Sequence record: PZ179882.1
DNA length: 64,000 nt
Direction: 5' to 3' (one strand)
Source of the DNA: a phage
A program made the translations under genes and the position numbers. Of the stretch, positions 1 through 38,859 are shown piece by piece. The notes beneath the pieces are model-generated. The model saw only the letters and a list, made by a program, of their open reading frames with translations. It ran no database searches and was not told the origin of the DNA. Each line of letters begins with the position of its first letter. Position 1 is the first letter of the stretch.

Positions 1-1294
1 TATTAAATAATGGAATGTACTTTTTAATAATAGCGCCTTTAATACCAGAATCTTTGAGCATATCAGTCAAAATTCCTCTATGGTATTTTTCCATTACTAA
101 ATTAGTTTTTGTCTTAACAATTTTATCAAGTTCTTCTTGAAGCAGTGCTATTTCATCAGCATGGTCAATAAACTCGGATGATGCTTTTTCTATAGCCGCT
201 TTAACTTTTTTAGCTTTATCTACCGTCGTAATTAAGGATTGCTTTTTATTGCGAATATCATTTGCTAACGTCTGCTGGGTTTTAATATTATCTCGGTATT
301 CATCAACAAGAACTTTTAAATTATCACGATGTGTTGAAAGCTGTTCAAACGAATGTGTACATTCAGAAACTTTATCTTTAATTTTAGAAACAACTTTATC
401 ACCGGAACTTAATTGTGACAAACAGGTTGGACATAATCCACCTTCGTGATACATATTAATGACTTTATTATACGAGTCAATTTTTGATTTAATTAAAAAT
501 GCTTCTTGACCGATTTTATTAAATGCATCAGTCGGGTCTTCATCCAAAACAATATTAACTAATCTTTCATTAGCTTCTTCTATTTCCGATTTTAGCGTTC
601 TAGCTTCTTTTGCCAAATCGTCATACATATTCTGCAGACGAGTAAGGTTTTCACCAGACAATTTTTTCTGGCGTTCAACGTTATCATTATATATTTTAAT
701 TTGTTGGATAATACTATCTTTTTTAACATCAAGCACTTGGTTTTGTGAATTTAATTCACGTATTAGTGCTTTATTAAGCTTATCCATTTCAGCTAATGTT
801 CCTACTTCGAGCAGGTCTTCGACAAGTTTTCTTCTTGCAGGAGTGGATAGGCCCATAAAAGGGGTATATCCAGCCGTGCCGAGTACGACGATCTGTTTGA
901 AACTGGCGTATGACATTCCGATAAGCTGTTCAAATTCTGCTTGGAAATCTTTACTGCTGGCAGATTCATTAAGACGTGTACCGTTAACGGTGATTTCGAA
1001 AACATTTGGTTTTTGTCCTCTTTTGATATAGTACTTTTTCTCATCATATTCCATCCACAGTTCAACTAAAAGTTCTTTCTTATTTGTGCTGTTTATTAAT
1101 TGACCTTTCTTTACATCACGAAATGGCTTGCCAAAAAGCCCAAATGTGATGGCTTCTAACATAGTAGACTTACCACCACCATTTCGCCCAGTAATAAGAG
1201 TTTTTTGAACCTTATCTAATTGAATGTCAATAGGATTTCCACCTACTGACATTATATTTTGATACCTAACTCGGTTTAGTTTAAAATTCTTCAC
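1..1294 (-). CDS. 46: Recombination endonuclease subunit gp46 (SbcC/Rad50-like ATPase), partial; C-terminal end lies beyond window start
   Basis: Reverse translation gives VKNFKLNRVRY...GRNGGGKST (Walker A) matching T4 gp46 from memory; GTG start at 1294 preceded by AAGGAA RBS; not in ORF track because it runs off the window. Confidence 0.9.
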   Translation of the reverse strand, partial: MKNFKLNRVRYQNIMSVGGNPIDIQLDKVQKTLITGRNGGGKSTMLEAITFGLFGKPFRDVKKGQLINSTNKKELLVELWMEYDEKKYYIKRGQKPNVFEITVNGTRLNESASSKDFQAEFEQLIGMSYASFKQIVVLGTAGYTPFMGLSTPARRKLVEDLLEVGTLAEMDKLNKALIRELNSQNQVLDVKKDSIIQQIKIYNDNVERQKKLSGENLTRLQNMYDDLAKEARTLKSEIEEANERLVNIVLDEDPTDAFNKIGQEAFLIKSKIDSYNKVINMYHEGGLCPTCLSQLSSGDKVVSKIKDKVSECTHSFEQLSTHRDNLKVLVDEYRDNIKTQQTLANDIRNKKQSLITTVDKAKKVKAAIEKASSEFIDHADEIALLQEELDKIVKTKTNLVMEKYHRGILTDMLKDSGIKGAIIKKYIPLFN

Positions 1295-30616: not shown

Positions 30617-31033
30617 TTAAATGTAAATATTTTTGCCGTAATACTTATACCAGTGTGGCTTCATTAAAATTTTTTCATCGAGTCGTTGTTGACTCAACTT
30701 AATAGCTGATTTGCATGGATTATAATCATTTTTCCATTCTACTGGAATATCGCTGATGTCAGGAACTTCAGTATCTTTTATACTAAACCCACGTTTTAAG
30801 CATTCCGTTATAATGTCTGATTGACGCTTTCGCAAAAATTCTAACTTATCGTAAAAGAACGTAACATGACCAGAACCTAAAATAAACTCGGAAGATATTT
30901 TAAAATCTTTAACCCGCTTACCATTTGCCACGTGTTTACGAACTATACCAAAAACACGTGGCAATTCACGATACTCAGCCATAAGATGTTGGTCGGTCAG
31001 TTCAGAAACAAGTGTTAAATTGATACGAGTCAT
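30617..31033 (-). CDS. denV: Endonuclease V (pyrimidine-dimer DNA glycosylase)
   Basis: [12 protein letters not shown]...[14 protein letters not shown] matches T4 DenV; ATG at 31033 with GGAGGAAATT RBS; 138 aa. Confidence 0.88.
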
Positions 31034-35359: not shown

Positions 35360-35923
35360 TTATTTACCTAGTTTACTTATTATAGCTTCTGCAGCAGCTT
35401 TTAGCTTAGATGCAGTGTTAATACGATTTTTAATTTCAGTATACGCATCGCCAAGAACATCAAGGCTATCAGAATAAACACTTACACTATTGCGTTCGCT
35501 ATTTGAAATAGAACCTTTAGTTTTGCGGTCAAAATCGGTGTACACGTCTTGAAGATCGCGGGCTGCCTTCTTTGCATCATCCAATGCATCAAGAGCTTTA
35601 TTCAAAGCATTAACGTATTTTTTAGTGTCGAACATATTCTTAGAAATTTTAACAGGTGCGCGTTCAGGAGTAGCTAACACAGATTTAGGAACCTGAGCGC
35701 CAGATGCCAATTTCTTAGAAATTTTGAAAAATGCTTTATTGAATTTATTTTCTTGACTCATTGTAAAAGAACTATTATCGATGTTGTACATTTCAATAGC
35801 TTTAGCTTTCCACTTAAGAAAATCGCCGCGGTCTTTTGGGTCCAATTGGAAGAATACTTTAGTAAGATCTGCTTCAGATGGTAATTTTGCTGCTTCGGTT
35901 AAAAATTCGGCATAGGTTTTCAT
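35360..35923 (-). CDS. Internal (capsid-targeted) protein, IPIII-like
   Basis: 187 aa; starts MKTYAEFLTEA capsid-targeting sequence. Confidence 0.6.
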   Translation of the reverse strand: MKTYAEFLTEAAKLPSEADLTKVFFQLDPKDRGDFLKWKAKAIEMYNIDNSSFTMSQENKFNKAFFKISKKLASGAQVPKSVLATPERAPVKISKNMFDTKKYVNALNKALDALDDAKKAARDLQDVYTDFDRKTKGSISNSERNSVSVYSDSLDVLGDAYTEIKNRINTASKLKAAAEAIISKLGK

Positions 35924-36048: not shown

Positions 36049-36522
36049 TCATTTGATTTGTTTAGCAGACCAAATGCGGTCTTTAATAATTTTTTGGATG
36101 TCTTCAACATACTCAAGAGAGTGAACATGTGGATTATCTTTGAAACTATAAGCACGGGCTAACTTTTGGCCTTCGGTTTTGATTACTAAAAGCTCTTTAA
36201 GGATAGCTTCATATTTAGCGATAATTCCTTTAACGATATTTTTTTCTTGTGCCGCTTTAGGATCTGCTTTAGGAGCAGGTTTACCCGAAGCCTTTGCAAA
36301 AGCAGCGCCAGTAGCAACTAAACTTTTCCAGGCCATACTAACTGCATTTCCCGTAAATCCTTCCGCTTTCATGTCGCGTGCAAACTGGAATCGCGATTCA
36401 TCAGAAGCATCTTTATAGGAATATTTACCCGCGGCAATGGCAGCTTTTGCAACAGCTTGAATTTCGGTGCTAGATGCTTCATTTAACACCGCTTCATTTA
36501 AAAATTGAGTATATGATTTCAT
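36049..36522 (-). CDS. Internal-protein-like protein (MKSYTQFLNEA N-terminus)
   Basis: ORF track 36049..36699 runs into the RNA region; ATG at 36522 with AGGAAA RBS; 157 aa; flanked by identical 31-bp hairpins. Confidence 0.55.
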   Translation of the reverse strand: MKSYTQFLNEAVLNEASSTEIQAVAKAAIAAGKYSYKDASDESRFQFARDMKAEGFTGNAVSMAWKSLVATGAAFAKASGKPAPKADPKAAQEKNIVKGIIAKYEAILKELLVIKTEGQKLARAYSFKDNPHVHSLEYVEDIQKIIKDRIWSAKQIK

Positions 36523-36570
36523 CTTATTTCCTGTTTTAATTTGTAGATTTAATATACTAATATTTATACC

Positions 36571-36601
36571 AAAAAGCCCCAACCTTTCGGTCGGGGCTAA
36601 G
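36571..36601 (-). terminator. Terminator-like hairpin, copy 2 of the 31-bp repeat
   Basis: Identical 31-mer to 36014..36044. Confidence 0.55.
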
Positions 36602-36905
36602 CCTTGCGGCAACCTTGTCGGGGTTCCACCTGCTAAGGCAAGTGTTTGTACGAAACGCCGGGATTCGAACCCGGTTATTAAGTAGTTGACGCTACTCAAT
36701 ATTTTTAAAAGGCCATATCTCGACCATATCCGAACGTTCCGTCAAAAACGCTACTCGGCTTACGGCAAAGATATTTCCTCGAATCGATAATTCGGTGCGC
36801 CGTTTCTGCTGTGATAGTAAAGAGCCAGAACACAGTAAAACTGTGGGAGGAAACTATACTCCAGGGAACATCAGTCCGACGACTTACCGGTAGCGACCCG
36901 GTTTC
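36602..36905 (-). ncRNA. Structured non-coding region with a tRNA-like 3-prime half; candidate small stable RNA(s)
   Basis: No credible ORF; T-arm-like CCGGGTTCGAATCCCGG (36658..36674) plus hairpins; no complete cloverleaf. Confidence 0.3.
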
Positions 36906-37256
36906 TTAATATTCTTTTAAAGAATCAATATATTCACGGCGTTTACGCCACAAATCAATTGCTTCATACGCGGATTCAGCATTTCGAATTAGCCGGCATT
37001 TATGTAAAGACTTATGATTTTGATATTGTGTAGATAACGGAATTGTATCTAAAAGGTCTTTACGATCAAAATATTCGTAACCATCTAAACCAAATGAACG
37101 ATTTTTGAGAAATTGCCAATGACCATATTCGTTTTCGACATAAACATAATCTGCATGCTGATAAAGCAAATTAATTACACGTTCAGAAATAACAGTATCA
37201 TTATGATTAAAATAGAATGTTAAATCATGAACTACTAAATAAACATTACCTTTCAT
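36906..37256 (-). CDS. Hypothetical protein
   Basis: ORF track 116 aa. Confidence 0.5.
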   Translation of the reverse strand: MKGNVYLVVHDLTFYFNHNDTVISERVINLLYQHADYVYVENEYGHWQFLKNRSFGLDGYEYFDRKDLLDTIPLSTQYQNHKSLHKCRLIRNAESAYEAIDLWRKRREYIDSLKEY

Positions 37257-37274: not shown

Positions 37275-37350
37275 TGGTCGAGGCAGTAGGGATCGAACCT
37301 ACGACCTAGGACTTAGAAGGTCCTTGCTCTTCCTTCTGAGCTATGCCCCG
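37275..37350 (-). tRNA. tRNA-Arg (anticodon UCU)
   Basis: 76 nt cloverleaf folded by eye; loop CUUCUAA; T-loop GTTCGATCC; encoded CCA. Confidence 0.85.
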
Positions 37351-37354
37351 TAAT

Positions 37355-37429
37355 TGGGTGACCGATGGGAGTCGAACCCATGACTACGAGAATCACAATC
37401 TCGAGTTCTACCAACTGAACTACGGCCAC
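37355..37429 (-). tRNA. tRNA-His (anticodon GUG)
   Basis: 75 nt cloverleaf; loop UUGUGAU; T-loop GGTTCGACTCC; encoded CCA. Confidence 0.8.
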
Positions 37430-37543
37430 ATTAATACCTACTCCAACAATCAAGATGTCTTCACACGAAATTAAGAGAAGAGTGATCAGTTCAACCCCTA
37501 TAATCGCGTCAAGTAGATATTAATGTGACAGTTGTCACAAATT

Positions 37544-37618
37544 TGGCGGACGTGATAGGATTCGAACCTATAACCAATCGCTTAACAGGCGATCGCTCTG
37601 CCATTGAGCTACACATCC
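37544..37618 (-). tRNA. tRNA-Asn (anticodon GUU)
   Basis: 75 nt cloverleaf; loop CUGUUAA; encoded CCA. Confidence 0.8.
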
Positions 37619-37622
37619 AAAT

Positions 37623-37709
37623 TGGTGGGGAGTGATGGAGTCGAACCACCCGAGTCGCAATGACAATGGATTTACAGTCCACACCGCTACCTCTACGGGA
37701 TAACTCCCC
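37623..37709 (-). tRNA. tRNA-Tyr (anticodon GUA)
   Basis: 87 nt with long variable arm; loop CUGUAAA; encoded CCA. Confidence 0.75.
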
Positions 37710-37721
37710 TAATTCGTAATT

Positions 37722-37796
37722 TGGTGGCCCTGGGTGGAATTGAACCACCATCTGGCGATTATGAGTCGCTTGCTTGAACCTTCCAGCTACAGGGCC
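37722..37796 (-). tRNA. tRNA with CAU anticodon (Met, or Ile if C34 is lysidine-modified)
   Basis: 75 nt cloverleaf; loop CUCAUAA; one mismatch in D and anticodon stems. Confidence 0.75.
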
Positions 37797-37797
37797 T

Positions 37798-37873
37798 TGG
37801 TGCTGATTGACGGAATCGAACCGCCGACCTTCTCATTACAAGTGAGTTGCTCTACCTACTGAGCTAAATCAGC
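37798..37873 (-). tRNA. tRNA-Thr (anticodon UGU)
   Basis: 76 nt cloverleaf; loop CUUGUAA. Confidence 0.85.
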
Positions 37874-37878
37874 AAAAC

Positions 37879-37968
37879 TGGCGGAGGCGATAGGATTTGA
37901 ACCTATGAGTCGCCGGAGCGACTGCCGGTTTTCAAGACCGGTGCATTAAACCACTCTGCCACGCCTCC
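37879..37968 (-). tRNA. tRNA-Ser (anticodon UGA)
   Basis: 90 nt with long variable arm; loop CUUGAAA. Confidence 0.8.
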
Positions 37969-37970
37969 AG

Positions 37971-38044
37971 TCTCCGTGGCAGGATTTGAACCTACGACAT
38001 TCTGCTCCCAAAGCAGACGCTCTACCAAACTGAGCTACACGAAG
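37971..38044 (-). tRNA. tRNA-Pro (anticodon UGG), CCA not encoded
   Basis: 74 nt; loop UUUGGGA; 3-prime end lacks CCA. Confidence 0.8.
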
Positions 38045-38054
38045 TAAATTAAAT

Positions 38055-38128
<74 letters not shown>

Positions 38129-38133
38129 AAATT

Positions 38134-38220
38134 TGGTGCGAGAAGTGGGACTCGAACCCACAAGGAAATCATTCCGCAGCATTTTAAGTGCTGTGCCTTT
38201 ACCAATTTGACCATTCTCGC
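38134..38220 (-). tRNA. tRNA-Leu (anticodon UAA)
   Basis: 87 nt with long variable arm; loop CUUAAAA. Confidence 0.85.
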
Positions 38221-38226
38221 TCTATA

Positions 38227-38859
38227 TTATTTATTACGTGAAAAAGATTGTTCTATCAATTCTGGACACTTTCGTTCTATCCATTTTCTAGCTTTTTGTG
38301 GGCTTATACCTATTATTTTAGCAGCTTTACTAACCCATCCAAATTTAGAATAATCGATTTTAACTAATTCTTCGTAAATTTCATCAGTTAAAATCTTTTC
38401 ATTAATATTTACCAGTAAATGATATAATTTATTATCATTAGCAATTTTAATGAATCTTTTATAGTTTCCGCCTTTACTTAAACCTAATGAAGTAATTGCA
38501 GATGATATAGTAGCTGAATTTAATAGTGCGTTTAAAATTTCTTCATCACTAACATTATAACGCTTTTTATTATTTTTAATATTTTTACCGGCAAAAGTAT
38601 CAGTTTGCGAATGGCAATTTGGACATAATAATCTTAAATTTGATTTAAGATGATTTTTGTTATTTCCATCAATATGGTCTAATTGCAGAACAATATGCTT
38701 ATTTTGCCATTTTGAAATTTTACAAATTGCACACTCATATGGAAAAATATTTTCTTTTATTATTTTGTCTTTCAGCTTTCCTGTACTAAAATTTGGATGT
38801 TTTCCTTCAAAAATTTCAGCTAATTTAGTATCCATAATATAATTCCCAATTATTAACAA
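38227..38859 (-). CDS. HNH homing endonuclease
   Basis: 210 aa; LQLDHIDGNNKNH...LRLLCPNCH HNH motif; stop 6 nt upstream of tRNA-Leu; start may be 38835. Confidence 0.65.
   Translation of the reverse strand: MLIIGNYIMDTKLAEIFEGKHPNFSTGKLKDKIIKENIFPYECAICKISKWQNKHIVLQLDHIDGNNKNHLKSNLRLLCPNCHSQTDTFAGKNIKNNKKRYNVSDEEILNALLNSATISSAITSLGLSKGGNYKRFIKIANDNKLYHLLVNINEKILTDEIYEELVKIDYSKFGWVSKAAKIIGISPQKARKWIERKCPELIEQSFSRNK

Follow-up and report, generated by a model that had tools for sequence, protein, structure and literature searches.

At positions 36602-36905, a 64,000-nucleotide stretch of phage DNA (sequence record PZ179882.1; the whole stretch is called the window) contains the orthologues of rnaD and rnaC, two genes that in phage T4 encode the species 2 and species 1 RNAs and that have been known there since the 1970s. 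In the interpretation developed here rnaD and then rnaC form the end of a transfer RNA (tRNA) operon and give rise to processed stable small RNAs. We assign a probability of about 0.85 to this interpretation, which is a joint figure for the best explanation as a whole, comprising identity, layout, biogenesis, folds, and the guess at function. Judged by its sequence, the window phage is a T2/T4-like Tequatrovirus. Positions 36540-36960 are 100% identical to Escherichia phage YUEEL01, and 810 phage records match, nearly all of them from Tequatrovirus and its relatives. The tRNA region is of the T2 type, with ten tRNAs, an extra open reading frame (ORF), and no segB. Since the tRNA genes at 37275-38220 lie on the minus strand, that is also the strand on which 36602-36905, situated downstream of these genes, must be read. 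In the 5' to 3' direction of that strand the features are:

37275-38220, minus strand: ten tRNA genes (Leu, Gly, Pro, Ser, Thr, Met, Tyr, Asn, His, Arg), upstream part of the rnaD-rnaC transcription unit
36794-36910, minus strand (36910 to 36794): rnaD (T4 species 2 RNA orthologue), about 117 nt, from the alignment to T4 NC_000866 71053-71171; 3' end ...GCGCACC
36788-36793, minus strand: spacer GAAUUA of 6 nt between rnaD and rnaC, from the T4 alignment and annotation
36649-36787, minus strand (36787 to 36649): rnaC (T4 species 1 RNA orthologue), 139 nt, a tRNA-shaped four-way junction, from the identity to T4 and covariance model R1 (see below)
36599-36648, minus strand: 3' trailer with the 7-bp hairpin CACUUGC...GCAGGUG, kept even in phages without rnaC
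36570-36598, minus strand (mapped 36598 to 36575): intrinsic terminator of the tRNA-rnaD-rnaC operon, with a 10-bp stem, a GAAA loop, and U5 (AGCCCCGACC-GAAA-GGUUGGGGCU followed by UUUUU)

The original prediction, a short annotation that preceded this analysis, had offered a stable RNA resembling T4 species 1 or 2 as one of two readings of the stretch, and the alignment to T4 rnaC and rnaD that it proposed bears this reading out. In T4 (NC_000866), rnaD (species 2 RNA) is annotated at 71053-71171 and rnaC (species 1 RNA) at 70908-71046, both on the minus strand right after tRNA-Arg. The window stretch aligns with them base for base. Order, strand, and terminator are shared, and the position is that in T4, 3' of the tRNA cluster and 5' of the same operon terminator. 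What had been noted as one element over 36602-36905 consists of two separate RNAs plus part of the 3' trailer, each encoded by the minus strand. Between the rnaC of the window and T4 rnaC the identity is 99.3% over 139/139 nt; 748 phage records match rnaC, with an identity of at least 95% in 681 of them. The window copy has the length, strand, and trailer of T4 rnaC, is likewise the last RNA before the operon terminator, and does not differ from it materially. rnaD is 79.5% identical to T4 rnaD (positions 5-117), with near-identical ends and a different middle; 746 phage records match. Conserved are the 5' 54 nt (the P1 hairpin, AAGUCGUCGGACUGAUG, and UUCCCUG), the 3' 25 nt (AUCACAGCAGAAACGGCGCACC), and the location immediately upstream of rnaC, whereas the apical stem module of the window copy differs. 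T4 rnaD abuts tRNA-Arg and encodes ...CACCA; in the window an ORF of 116 amino acids lies upstream and the RNA reads ...CACCG. The 5' end of rnaD, placed by homology to T4, overlaps the TAA stop codon (36908-36906) of that ORF and does not directly follow tRNA-Arg as in T4, a difference that concerns the gene order and not the RNA. The stretch displays every testable feature of the rnaC and rnaD families. It is also devoid of a credible ORF, as had been predicted: only ORFs of 32-42 amino acids lie between the stop of the 116-amino-acid ORF (36906) and the ATG at 36522 of an internal-protein-like gene. The whole stretch from 36915 to 36565 folds with a z score of -5.05.

In T4, transcription ends after the species I gene (PMC2330249), and the primary transcript of the tRNA cluster, of about 1.75 kb, ends at the same place. 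RNAC has been seen in Northern blots of T4, and both RNAC and RNAD have been classed as late RNAs of unknown function (PMC9697503; also PMC3014915). In T4-infected cells species 1 RNA accumulates as a discrete stable species of about 140 nt (PMC9697503).

The fold of rnaC was derived from 24 distinct homologues, which span over a dozen genera or lineages of phages (Tequatro-, Gapriver-, Karam-, Moon-, Kagamiyama-, Winkler-, Teguna-, Gelderland-, Mosuguk-, and Marfavirus, Edwardsiella phage PEi20, and Citrobacter phage Ursula). RNAalifold and the single-sequence minimum free energy (MFE) structure concur on a four-way junction, which in the window copy has an MFE of -50.2 kcal/mol and a z score of -4.56. 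The junction is composed of a 7-bp acceptor-like stem, a 70-nt branched domain, a 10-bp stem with a 6-nt loop, and a 5-bp T stem with a UUCGAAU loop. Across the 24 sequences, 92.1% of the cells form standard pairs, compared with 38-46% when the partners are slid by 1-3 columns, and in 29 of the 48 pairs both sides have changed. Covariance model R1, built from 16 homologues from outside Tequatrovirus, with no T4-type sequence among them, matches the window with 140.6 bits over model positions 1-140, at exactly 36649-36787 on the minus strand. The original prediction had named empty covariance-model searches as a sign against a stable RNA; emptiness is true for Rfam only, whereas the purpose-built model matches rnaC with E = 2.9e-36. 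A weak second match of R1 at 30853-30946 is spurious. It lies inside a coding sequence, which from its translation we take to be similar to T4 denV. The parts of rnaC are:

36780-36786, minus strand: 5' strand CGAUUCG of the acceptor-like stem, pairing with 36651-36657
36710-36779, minus strand: 'D-domain', a 70-nt branched arm with the apical 6-nt loop L1 UUGACG (36745-36740); helices 2-5 are 89-100% paired, with many double changes
36676-36701, minus strand: anticodon-like arm, a 10-bp stem with the 6-nt loop L2 CGUCAA (36691-36686), from the comparison of homologues
36658-36674, minus strand: T arm CCGGG-UUCGAAU-CCCGG; helix 8 is 99% paired and 2 pairs covary
36651-36657, minus strand: 3' strand CGUUUCG of the acceptor-like stem, followed by UA (the annotated 3' end) and a conserved CAA; no CCA is encoded

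This structure accounts for what had been noticed in the DNA and corrects part of it. The perfect T arm CCGGG-TTCGAAT-CCCGG is present exactly as described, on the minus strand from 36674 to 36658. The T-loop word GGTTCGAATCC, with at most one mismatch, occurs at 8 sites in the window, in seven tRNAs and rnaC, against 0.58 expected by chance. The anticodon-arm-like hairpin is real, lies at 36696 to 36681, and belongs to rnaC, but its loop had been given as 7 nt with one C counted twice; the corrected form is AGTAG-CGTCAA-CTACT, with a loop of 6 nt and a stem that reaches 10 bp once the flanking pairs are included. A D arm is indeed missing, the 70-nt branched domain standing in its place. A matching acceptor, said to be absent, was found in the 7-bp stem formed by CGAUUCG (36786-36780) and CGUUUCG (36657-36651), the 3' strand of which directly abuts the T stem, as in tRNA. 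Pair 3 of this stem switches between A-U and G-C among the homologues. In T4-type sequences the stem has two central U.U mismatches, positions that are Watson-Crick pairs in Tegunavirus and Mosugukvirus homologues (U-A and C-G in TG1; U-A/U-A in PM2). In Winklervirus homologues of rnaC (L075 126-265; L078 105-242) the T stem is kept and the T-loop is lost, with UGCAUCC or UGCAUC in place of UUCGAAU; a tRNA-like T-loop is therefore not essential to the rnaC family.

rnaC resembles a canonical tRNA (RF00005) in its 7-bp acceptor stem placed on a 5-bp T stem, in the UUCGAAU loop, in the four-way junction, and in its position in a tRNA operon. It differs in the 70-nt domain that replaces the D arm, in the 10-bp 'anticodon' stem with a 6-nt loop that lacks U33, in having one unpaired nucleotide at the place of the variable loop, and in encoding no CCA. 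Neither ARAGORN nor the Rfam tRNA model makes a call at 36649-36787, where the best match from the tRNA clan is tRNA-Sec (17 bits compared with a gathering score of 47). Rfam searches of the whole stretch, of rnaC alone, and of rnaD alone, with gathering thresholds and in E-value mode, yielded local T-arm matches only. Those at rnaC are to transfer-messenger RNA (tmRNA) and mascRNA, without an overall match to a sequence or model; the tmRNA model matches the 17-nt T arm only (10 bits compared with a gathering score of 47), and ARAGORN calls no tmRNA. Like rnaC, the tRNA-like domain of tmRNA, YrlA, and mascRNA draw on the acceptor/T-arm module, the presumed purpose being RNase P processing and stability. 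Unlike tmRNA, rnaC has neither an mRNA-like ORF nor a pseudoknot ring. YrlA, a bacterial Y-RNA-like RNA, has a long Ro-binding stem, which rnaC lacks. rnaC is not a tRNA, a tmRNA, or a pseudogene.

The two 6-nt loops of rnaC are complementary to each other. L1 UUGACG is the exact reverse complement of L2 CGUCAA, and this exact complementarity is found in 23 of the 24 homologues, while the stems that close L1 and L2 vary. Three versions occur. Besides UUGACG/CGUCAA there is UUGAUG/CAUCAA, a compensatory change from C-G to U-A in Tegunavirus, and UUGGCG/CGCCAA, a change from A-U to G-C at another position and in another lineage, Marfavirus phage R3_1. Over the 24 homologues the putative kissing helix is 99.3% paired. 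By direct calculation, full complementarity of two given 6-nt loops has a chance of about 1 in 4,096. We read L1/L2 as a kissing interaction, which on sequence grounds may be intramolecular or intermolecular alike; in either geometry the 'anticodon' loop of rnaC would not be free for decoding. Duplex and dimer folding at full length was uninformative.

The fold of rnaD was obtained from 19 distinct homologues and consists of a 5' hairpin and a long stem:

36886-36902, minus strand: P1 hairpin ACCGG-GUCGCUA-CCGGU, 5 bp with a 7-nt loop, covarying in W70 (GUCGG/CCGAU)
36798-36881, minus strand: long irregular stem with a closing helix, an inner helix, and a lineage-variable apex
36831-36845, minus strand: apical hairpin CACAG-UUUUA-CUGUG; the G at 36833 corresponds to the site of a polymorphism in phage BW-1 (see below)

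Within these sequences 85.5% of the cells are paired, compared with 32-48% after sliding, and 11 pairs have changed on both sides. The Karamvirus and Klebsiella-phage copies have an unrelated 7-bp hairpin in place of P1. The closing helix, CGUCG (36881-36877) with CGGCG (36802-36798), is invariant. The inner helix of the T4 type, UGAUGUU/AGCAGAA, contains a tandem G.A, the positions of which are Watson-Crick pairs in the Karamvirus and Klebsiella-phage types. The apex is lineage-specific and is swapped as modules, such that the middle of rnaD is exchanged between lineages for unrelated modules of differing length.

Several motifs and pairings considered for rnaD were dropped. For the core, both a hammerhead (CUGAUG...GAAAC) and a kink-turn or C/D-box-like motif were rejected on account of the missing A9, an unsuitable bulge geometry, and the G.A positions, which are plain Watson-Crick in the Karamvirus and Klebsiella types. 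Pairing of the P1 loop GUCGCUA with the repeated UAGCG of rnaC shows no covariation, and rnaD occurs without rnaC. The 3' block of rnaD, GAAACGGCG (36798-36806), is complementary at 8/9 positions to the 3' end of rnaC, CGGCGUUUC (36652-36660); this is not conserved in Karamvirus and is probably a coincidence. The complementarity of GAAACGGCG and CGGCGUUUC could matter in an unprocessed precursor.

A hint at function comes from phage BW-1, in which a convergent single-nucleotide polymorphism (SNP) in rnaD, 164264 T->C, has been reported for all three lines adapted to Escherichia coli ECOR34 (PMC12685909). In the deposited genome it corresponds to A->G in the RNA, in the apical hairpin CACAG-UUUUA-CU[A>G]UG. 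A C-G pair and the family fold are thereby regained, the MFE falling from -25.9 to -31.0 kcal/mol. The window phage already carries G at this site (36833). The SNP is the only functional hint, and it points to a host-specific role of rnaD that depends on the RNA structure.

As modules, rnaC and rnaD are separable. rnaD without rnaC is seen in phages of the Dhakavirus type (IME08, JS98) and in several IMG/VR contigs, which retain the trailer. In Karam-, Kagamiyama-, Gelderland-, and Winklervirus and their relatives rnaC stands between tRNA genes at tRNA-like spacing; in EnA02 it begins 9 nt after tRNA-Trp and ends 6 nt before tRNA-Gly. An rnaD-like element directly follows a tRNA in T4, IME08, W70, and Karamvirus, and W70 and A73, in which the rnaD homologue has this position, are Vequintavirinae phages. 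By blastn neither rnaC nor rnaD was matched in 5,426 E. coli genomes or in PLSDB plasmids, and the 5' block of rnaD had 0 matches in 185,579 bacterial and archaeal species genomes. An exact-pattern scan of IMG/VR with the 15-mer AAGTCGTCGGACTGA produced mostly chance matches in unrelated GC-rich contigs, which were filtered by requiring the 3' block. The sole new loci obtained with the 3' block pattern, L064-L067, were chance matches.

Further structured elements were seen near rnaD and rnaC in related phages. Some Dhakavirus-like contigs have a 'mini-rnaD' of about 70 nt between tRNA-Arg and rnaD (L030 at about 1042-1110, minus strand; L040 at about 320-388; L043 at about 243-311), in which a hairpin is followed by AAGCCGUCG...CCGGCGCAAC and which resembles a shortened tandem paralogue of rnaD. 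In Karamvirus and Klebsiella phages (L070 580-719; L002 175-315; L071 580-706) a hairpin-rich non-coding stretch of about 140 nt between the rnaD-like element and tRNA-Asp may be another structured RNA. In Yersinia phage fPS-65 (L005 1853-1898 and 2412-2457) and several others (two-piece matches H2, H4, H7, and H8) the operon terminator is duplicated, and an extra ORF, g136c, lies between the terminator copies, downstream of rnaC, an arrangement that resembles a cassette insertion. In L024, a VR25-like phage, an odd element some 115 nt long occupies the interval from the first tRNA to tRNA-Arg (minus strand). Its two hairpins, GCGGTTCGATTCCGTC and GGTGGTTCGAGTCCACC, resemble T arms, and it might represent either a tRNA that is split, permuted, or interrupted by an intron or a further tRNA-like RNA.

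The surroundings of rnaD and rnaC in the window include the following:

36906-37256, minus strand: ORF of 116 amino acids, phrog_3355, function unknown, inserted between tRNA-Arg and rnaD, which abut in T4
37430-37543, minus strand: non-tRNA spacer of 114 nt between tRNA-Asn and tRNA-His, forming a long branched hairpin
38227-38859, minus strand: HNH homing-endonuclease ORF, phrog_14736 (E = 6e-124), immediately upstream of the tRNA cluster
36049-36522 and 35360-35923, minus strand: two genes starting with MKSYTQFLNEA... and MKTYAEFLTEA..., respectively

The 116-amino-acid ORF has no Pfam match, and the arrangement tRNA-Arg/ORF/rnaD recurs in fPS-65, BW-1, and IMG/VR relatives. T4 has the GIY-YIG endonuclease segB inside its tRNA cluster, whereas in the window the HNH ORF lies upstream of the cluster. 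The spacer at 37430-37543 has an MFE of -33.1 kcal/mol and a z score of -3.37, with 0/200 shuffles reaching this stability. Its conservation extends to 356 phage records, among them Klebsiella JD18-like phages (about 80%) and the Vequintavirinae phage W70 (87%). The spacer is unannotated, has no Rfam match, and is a candidate for a third small RNA processed from the tRNA operon. The starts of the genes at 36049-36522 and 35360-35923 resemble the capsid-targeting leader of T4 internal proteins. The T4 late-promoter word TATAAATA at 36568-36561, which follows the operon terminator, precedes the gene at 36049-36522 and was assigned to it. These internal-protein-like genes come directly after the tRNA operon, whereas in T4 e.1-e.8, nudE, and e intervene.

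In the proposed biogenesis, transcription would pass through the tRNA genes, the 116-amino-acid ORF, rnaD, and rnaC and stop at the terminator at 36598-36575. rnaD and rnaC would be released from the polycistronic precursor by the tRNA-processing machinery of the host, as suggested by the 12-bp acceptor/T helix of rnaC, which is of the kind recognised by RNase P. RNase P would cut at the foot of the acceptor-like stem, stacked as it is on a normal T arm, with endo- and exonucleases shortening the 3' ends as far as the closing helices, a step that we infer because rnaC and rnaD are flanked like tRNAs. The mature rnaC would be a tRNA-derived scaffold rather than a decoder, its anticodon-like loop kissing the apical loop of the D-domain, and rnaD would be a 5' hairpin with a long irregular stem, in which a conserved core carries an apex exchanged between lineages.

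With regard to function, we tentatively consider both to be protein-binding structured RNAs or tRNA mimics of host-dependent benefit, a guess in which we place some, though less than even, confidence. rnaC might act as a mimic or decoy for a host or phage factor that recognises tRNA, and both RNAs might confer a host-dependent advantage, like the rest of the accessory tRNA locus. The decoy idea derives from reports that the T-even tRNA region is an anti-defence locus, in which the tRNA-Tyr of T6 counters Septu (PMC13096335), and that anticodon-loop variants of phage tRNAs act against tRNA-cleaving defences (PMC10264068). The dispensability of the T4 tRNA region on laboratory strains also enters into it. 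Those tRNAs belong to the same type of operon and are likewise accessory and of host-dependent value, and they set a precedent. They are, however, functional decoders that replace cleaved host tRNAs, whereas rnaC cannot decode and no defence system has been linked to it. The most specific form of the proposal is rather doubtful. It holds that rnaC is a dedicated tRNA mimic with an anticodon-like loop locked by kissing and that, together with rnaD, it works in host range or against defences; it could, for instance, decoy or inhibit a nuclease that targets tRNAs or some other factor that binds them.

A decayed tRNA, the other reading in the original prediction, would be a pseudogene that became functionless after an insertion into its D arm and has been drifting. 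The tRNA-like 3' half, with its T arm, hairpin, and acceptor 3' strand abutting the T stem, is in line with such an origin, as are the silence of ARAGORN and the Rfam tRNA model and the two U.U mismatches in the T4-type acceptor stem. A neutral pseudogene, however, would not keep its fold by compensatory changes. Precisely such changes maintain rnaC across more than a dozen phage genera, with fixed loops and double changes in 29/48 pairs; the inserted domain itself is structurally conserved, the identity is at least 95% in 681/748 records, and T4 contains the RNA as a discrete stable species (PMC9697503). Decay is therefore highly improbable. A hidden small protein-coding gene, which might be suspected from the ORFs of 32-42 amino acids that overlap the region on both strands and from several GenBank records that place 'hypothetical protein' features over it, has a negligible probability. 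The substitutions are of the paired type expected of RNA, the middle of rnaD is swapped for unrelated modules of differing length, no ORF spans a conserved block, and T4 annotates both genes as RNAs. The covariation pattern excludes both a decayed tRNA and a hidden small ORF.

It is unlikely that rnaC and rnaD are by-products or cis-acting parts of the operon, that is, structured spacers which guide processing or protect the 3' end and have no role after release. That both always occur within or appended to tRNA clusters, that a conserved trailer and terminator follow, and that rnaD has no special thermodynamic stability would fit such spacers; an rnaC or rnaD phenotype is also not known from laboratory hosts. 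A 3' cap, however, would not be found in the middle of tRNA arrays, as rnaC is in Karam-, Kagamiyama-, Gelderland-, and Winklervirus, and a spacer needs neither invariant loops nor covariation of L1 with L2. Moreover, rnaD and rnaC occur independently of each other, and the adaptive SNP maps to the apex of rnaD. Trans-acting regulators in which L1/L2 of rnaC and the P1 loop of rnaD pair with host or phage mRNAs or tRNAs would explain why loops remain invariant amid covarying stems, and the complementarity of L1 and L2 demonstrates competence for pairing. The same complementarity and its covariation nevertheless favour pairing of the loops with each other over a shared external target, and neither RNA has the terminator hairpin and U tail of Hfq-dependent small RNAs, both being cut from a precursor. 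Such regulators are distinctly improbable. The remainder of the probability falls to other functions of rnaC and rnaD.

The interpretation of rnaC and rnaD as processed structured RNAs with a host-dependent benefit has to contend with a number of observations that weigh against it. The kissing pairing is supported by two lineage-specific events only, and in PM2 it shrinks to the 4-bp core GACG/CGUC. The stability of rnaD is no better than that of shuffled sequence (z = -0.4 to -1.6), and its 5' end is uncertain, with an ORF and not tRNA-Arg upstream. The RNase P cut is read from the shape of rnaC, the decoy role is a guess, and the BW-1 SNP could be standing variation of the ancestral stock. 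On laboratory strains T4 tolerates the loss of its tRNA region, which makes any function of rnaC and rnaD conditional.

Modules of rnaC and rnaD are found in many Straboviridae genera, and rnaD also in Vequintavirinae. In most records of T4-like phages they are present yet unannotated or overlaid with 'hypothetical protein'. Neither has an Rfam family, and automated pipelines therefore miss them. Novelty may lie in the fold models and the kissing loops, and likewise in the modular distribution and in the mapping of the BW-1 SNP, the primary literature of the 1970s-80s being outside the comparison. The covariation-backed folds, the loop-loop pairing of rnaC, the separable modules, and the SNP that restores a base pair in rnaD are testable leads which could make the old question of function accessible to experiment, with mutants and with hosts such as ECOR34 to try. 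Should rnaC prove to be a mimic or decoy, the T-even tRNA operon would be a mixed counter-defence island of tRNAs and RNA decoys, and the 50-year-old question of the role of species 1 and 2 RNA would be answered.

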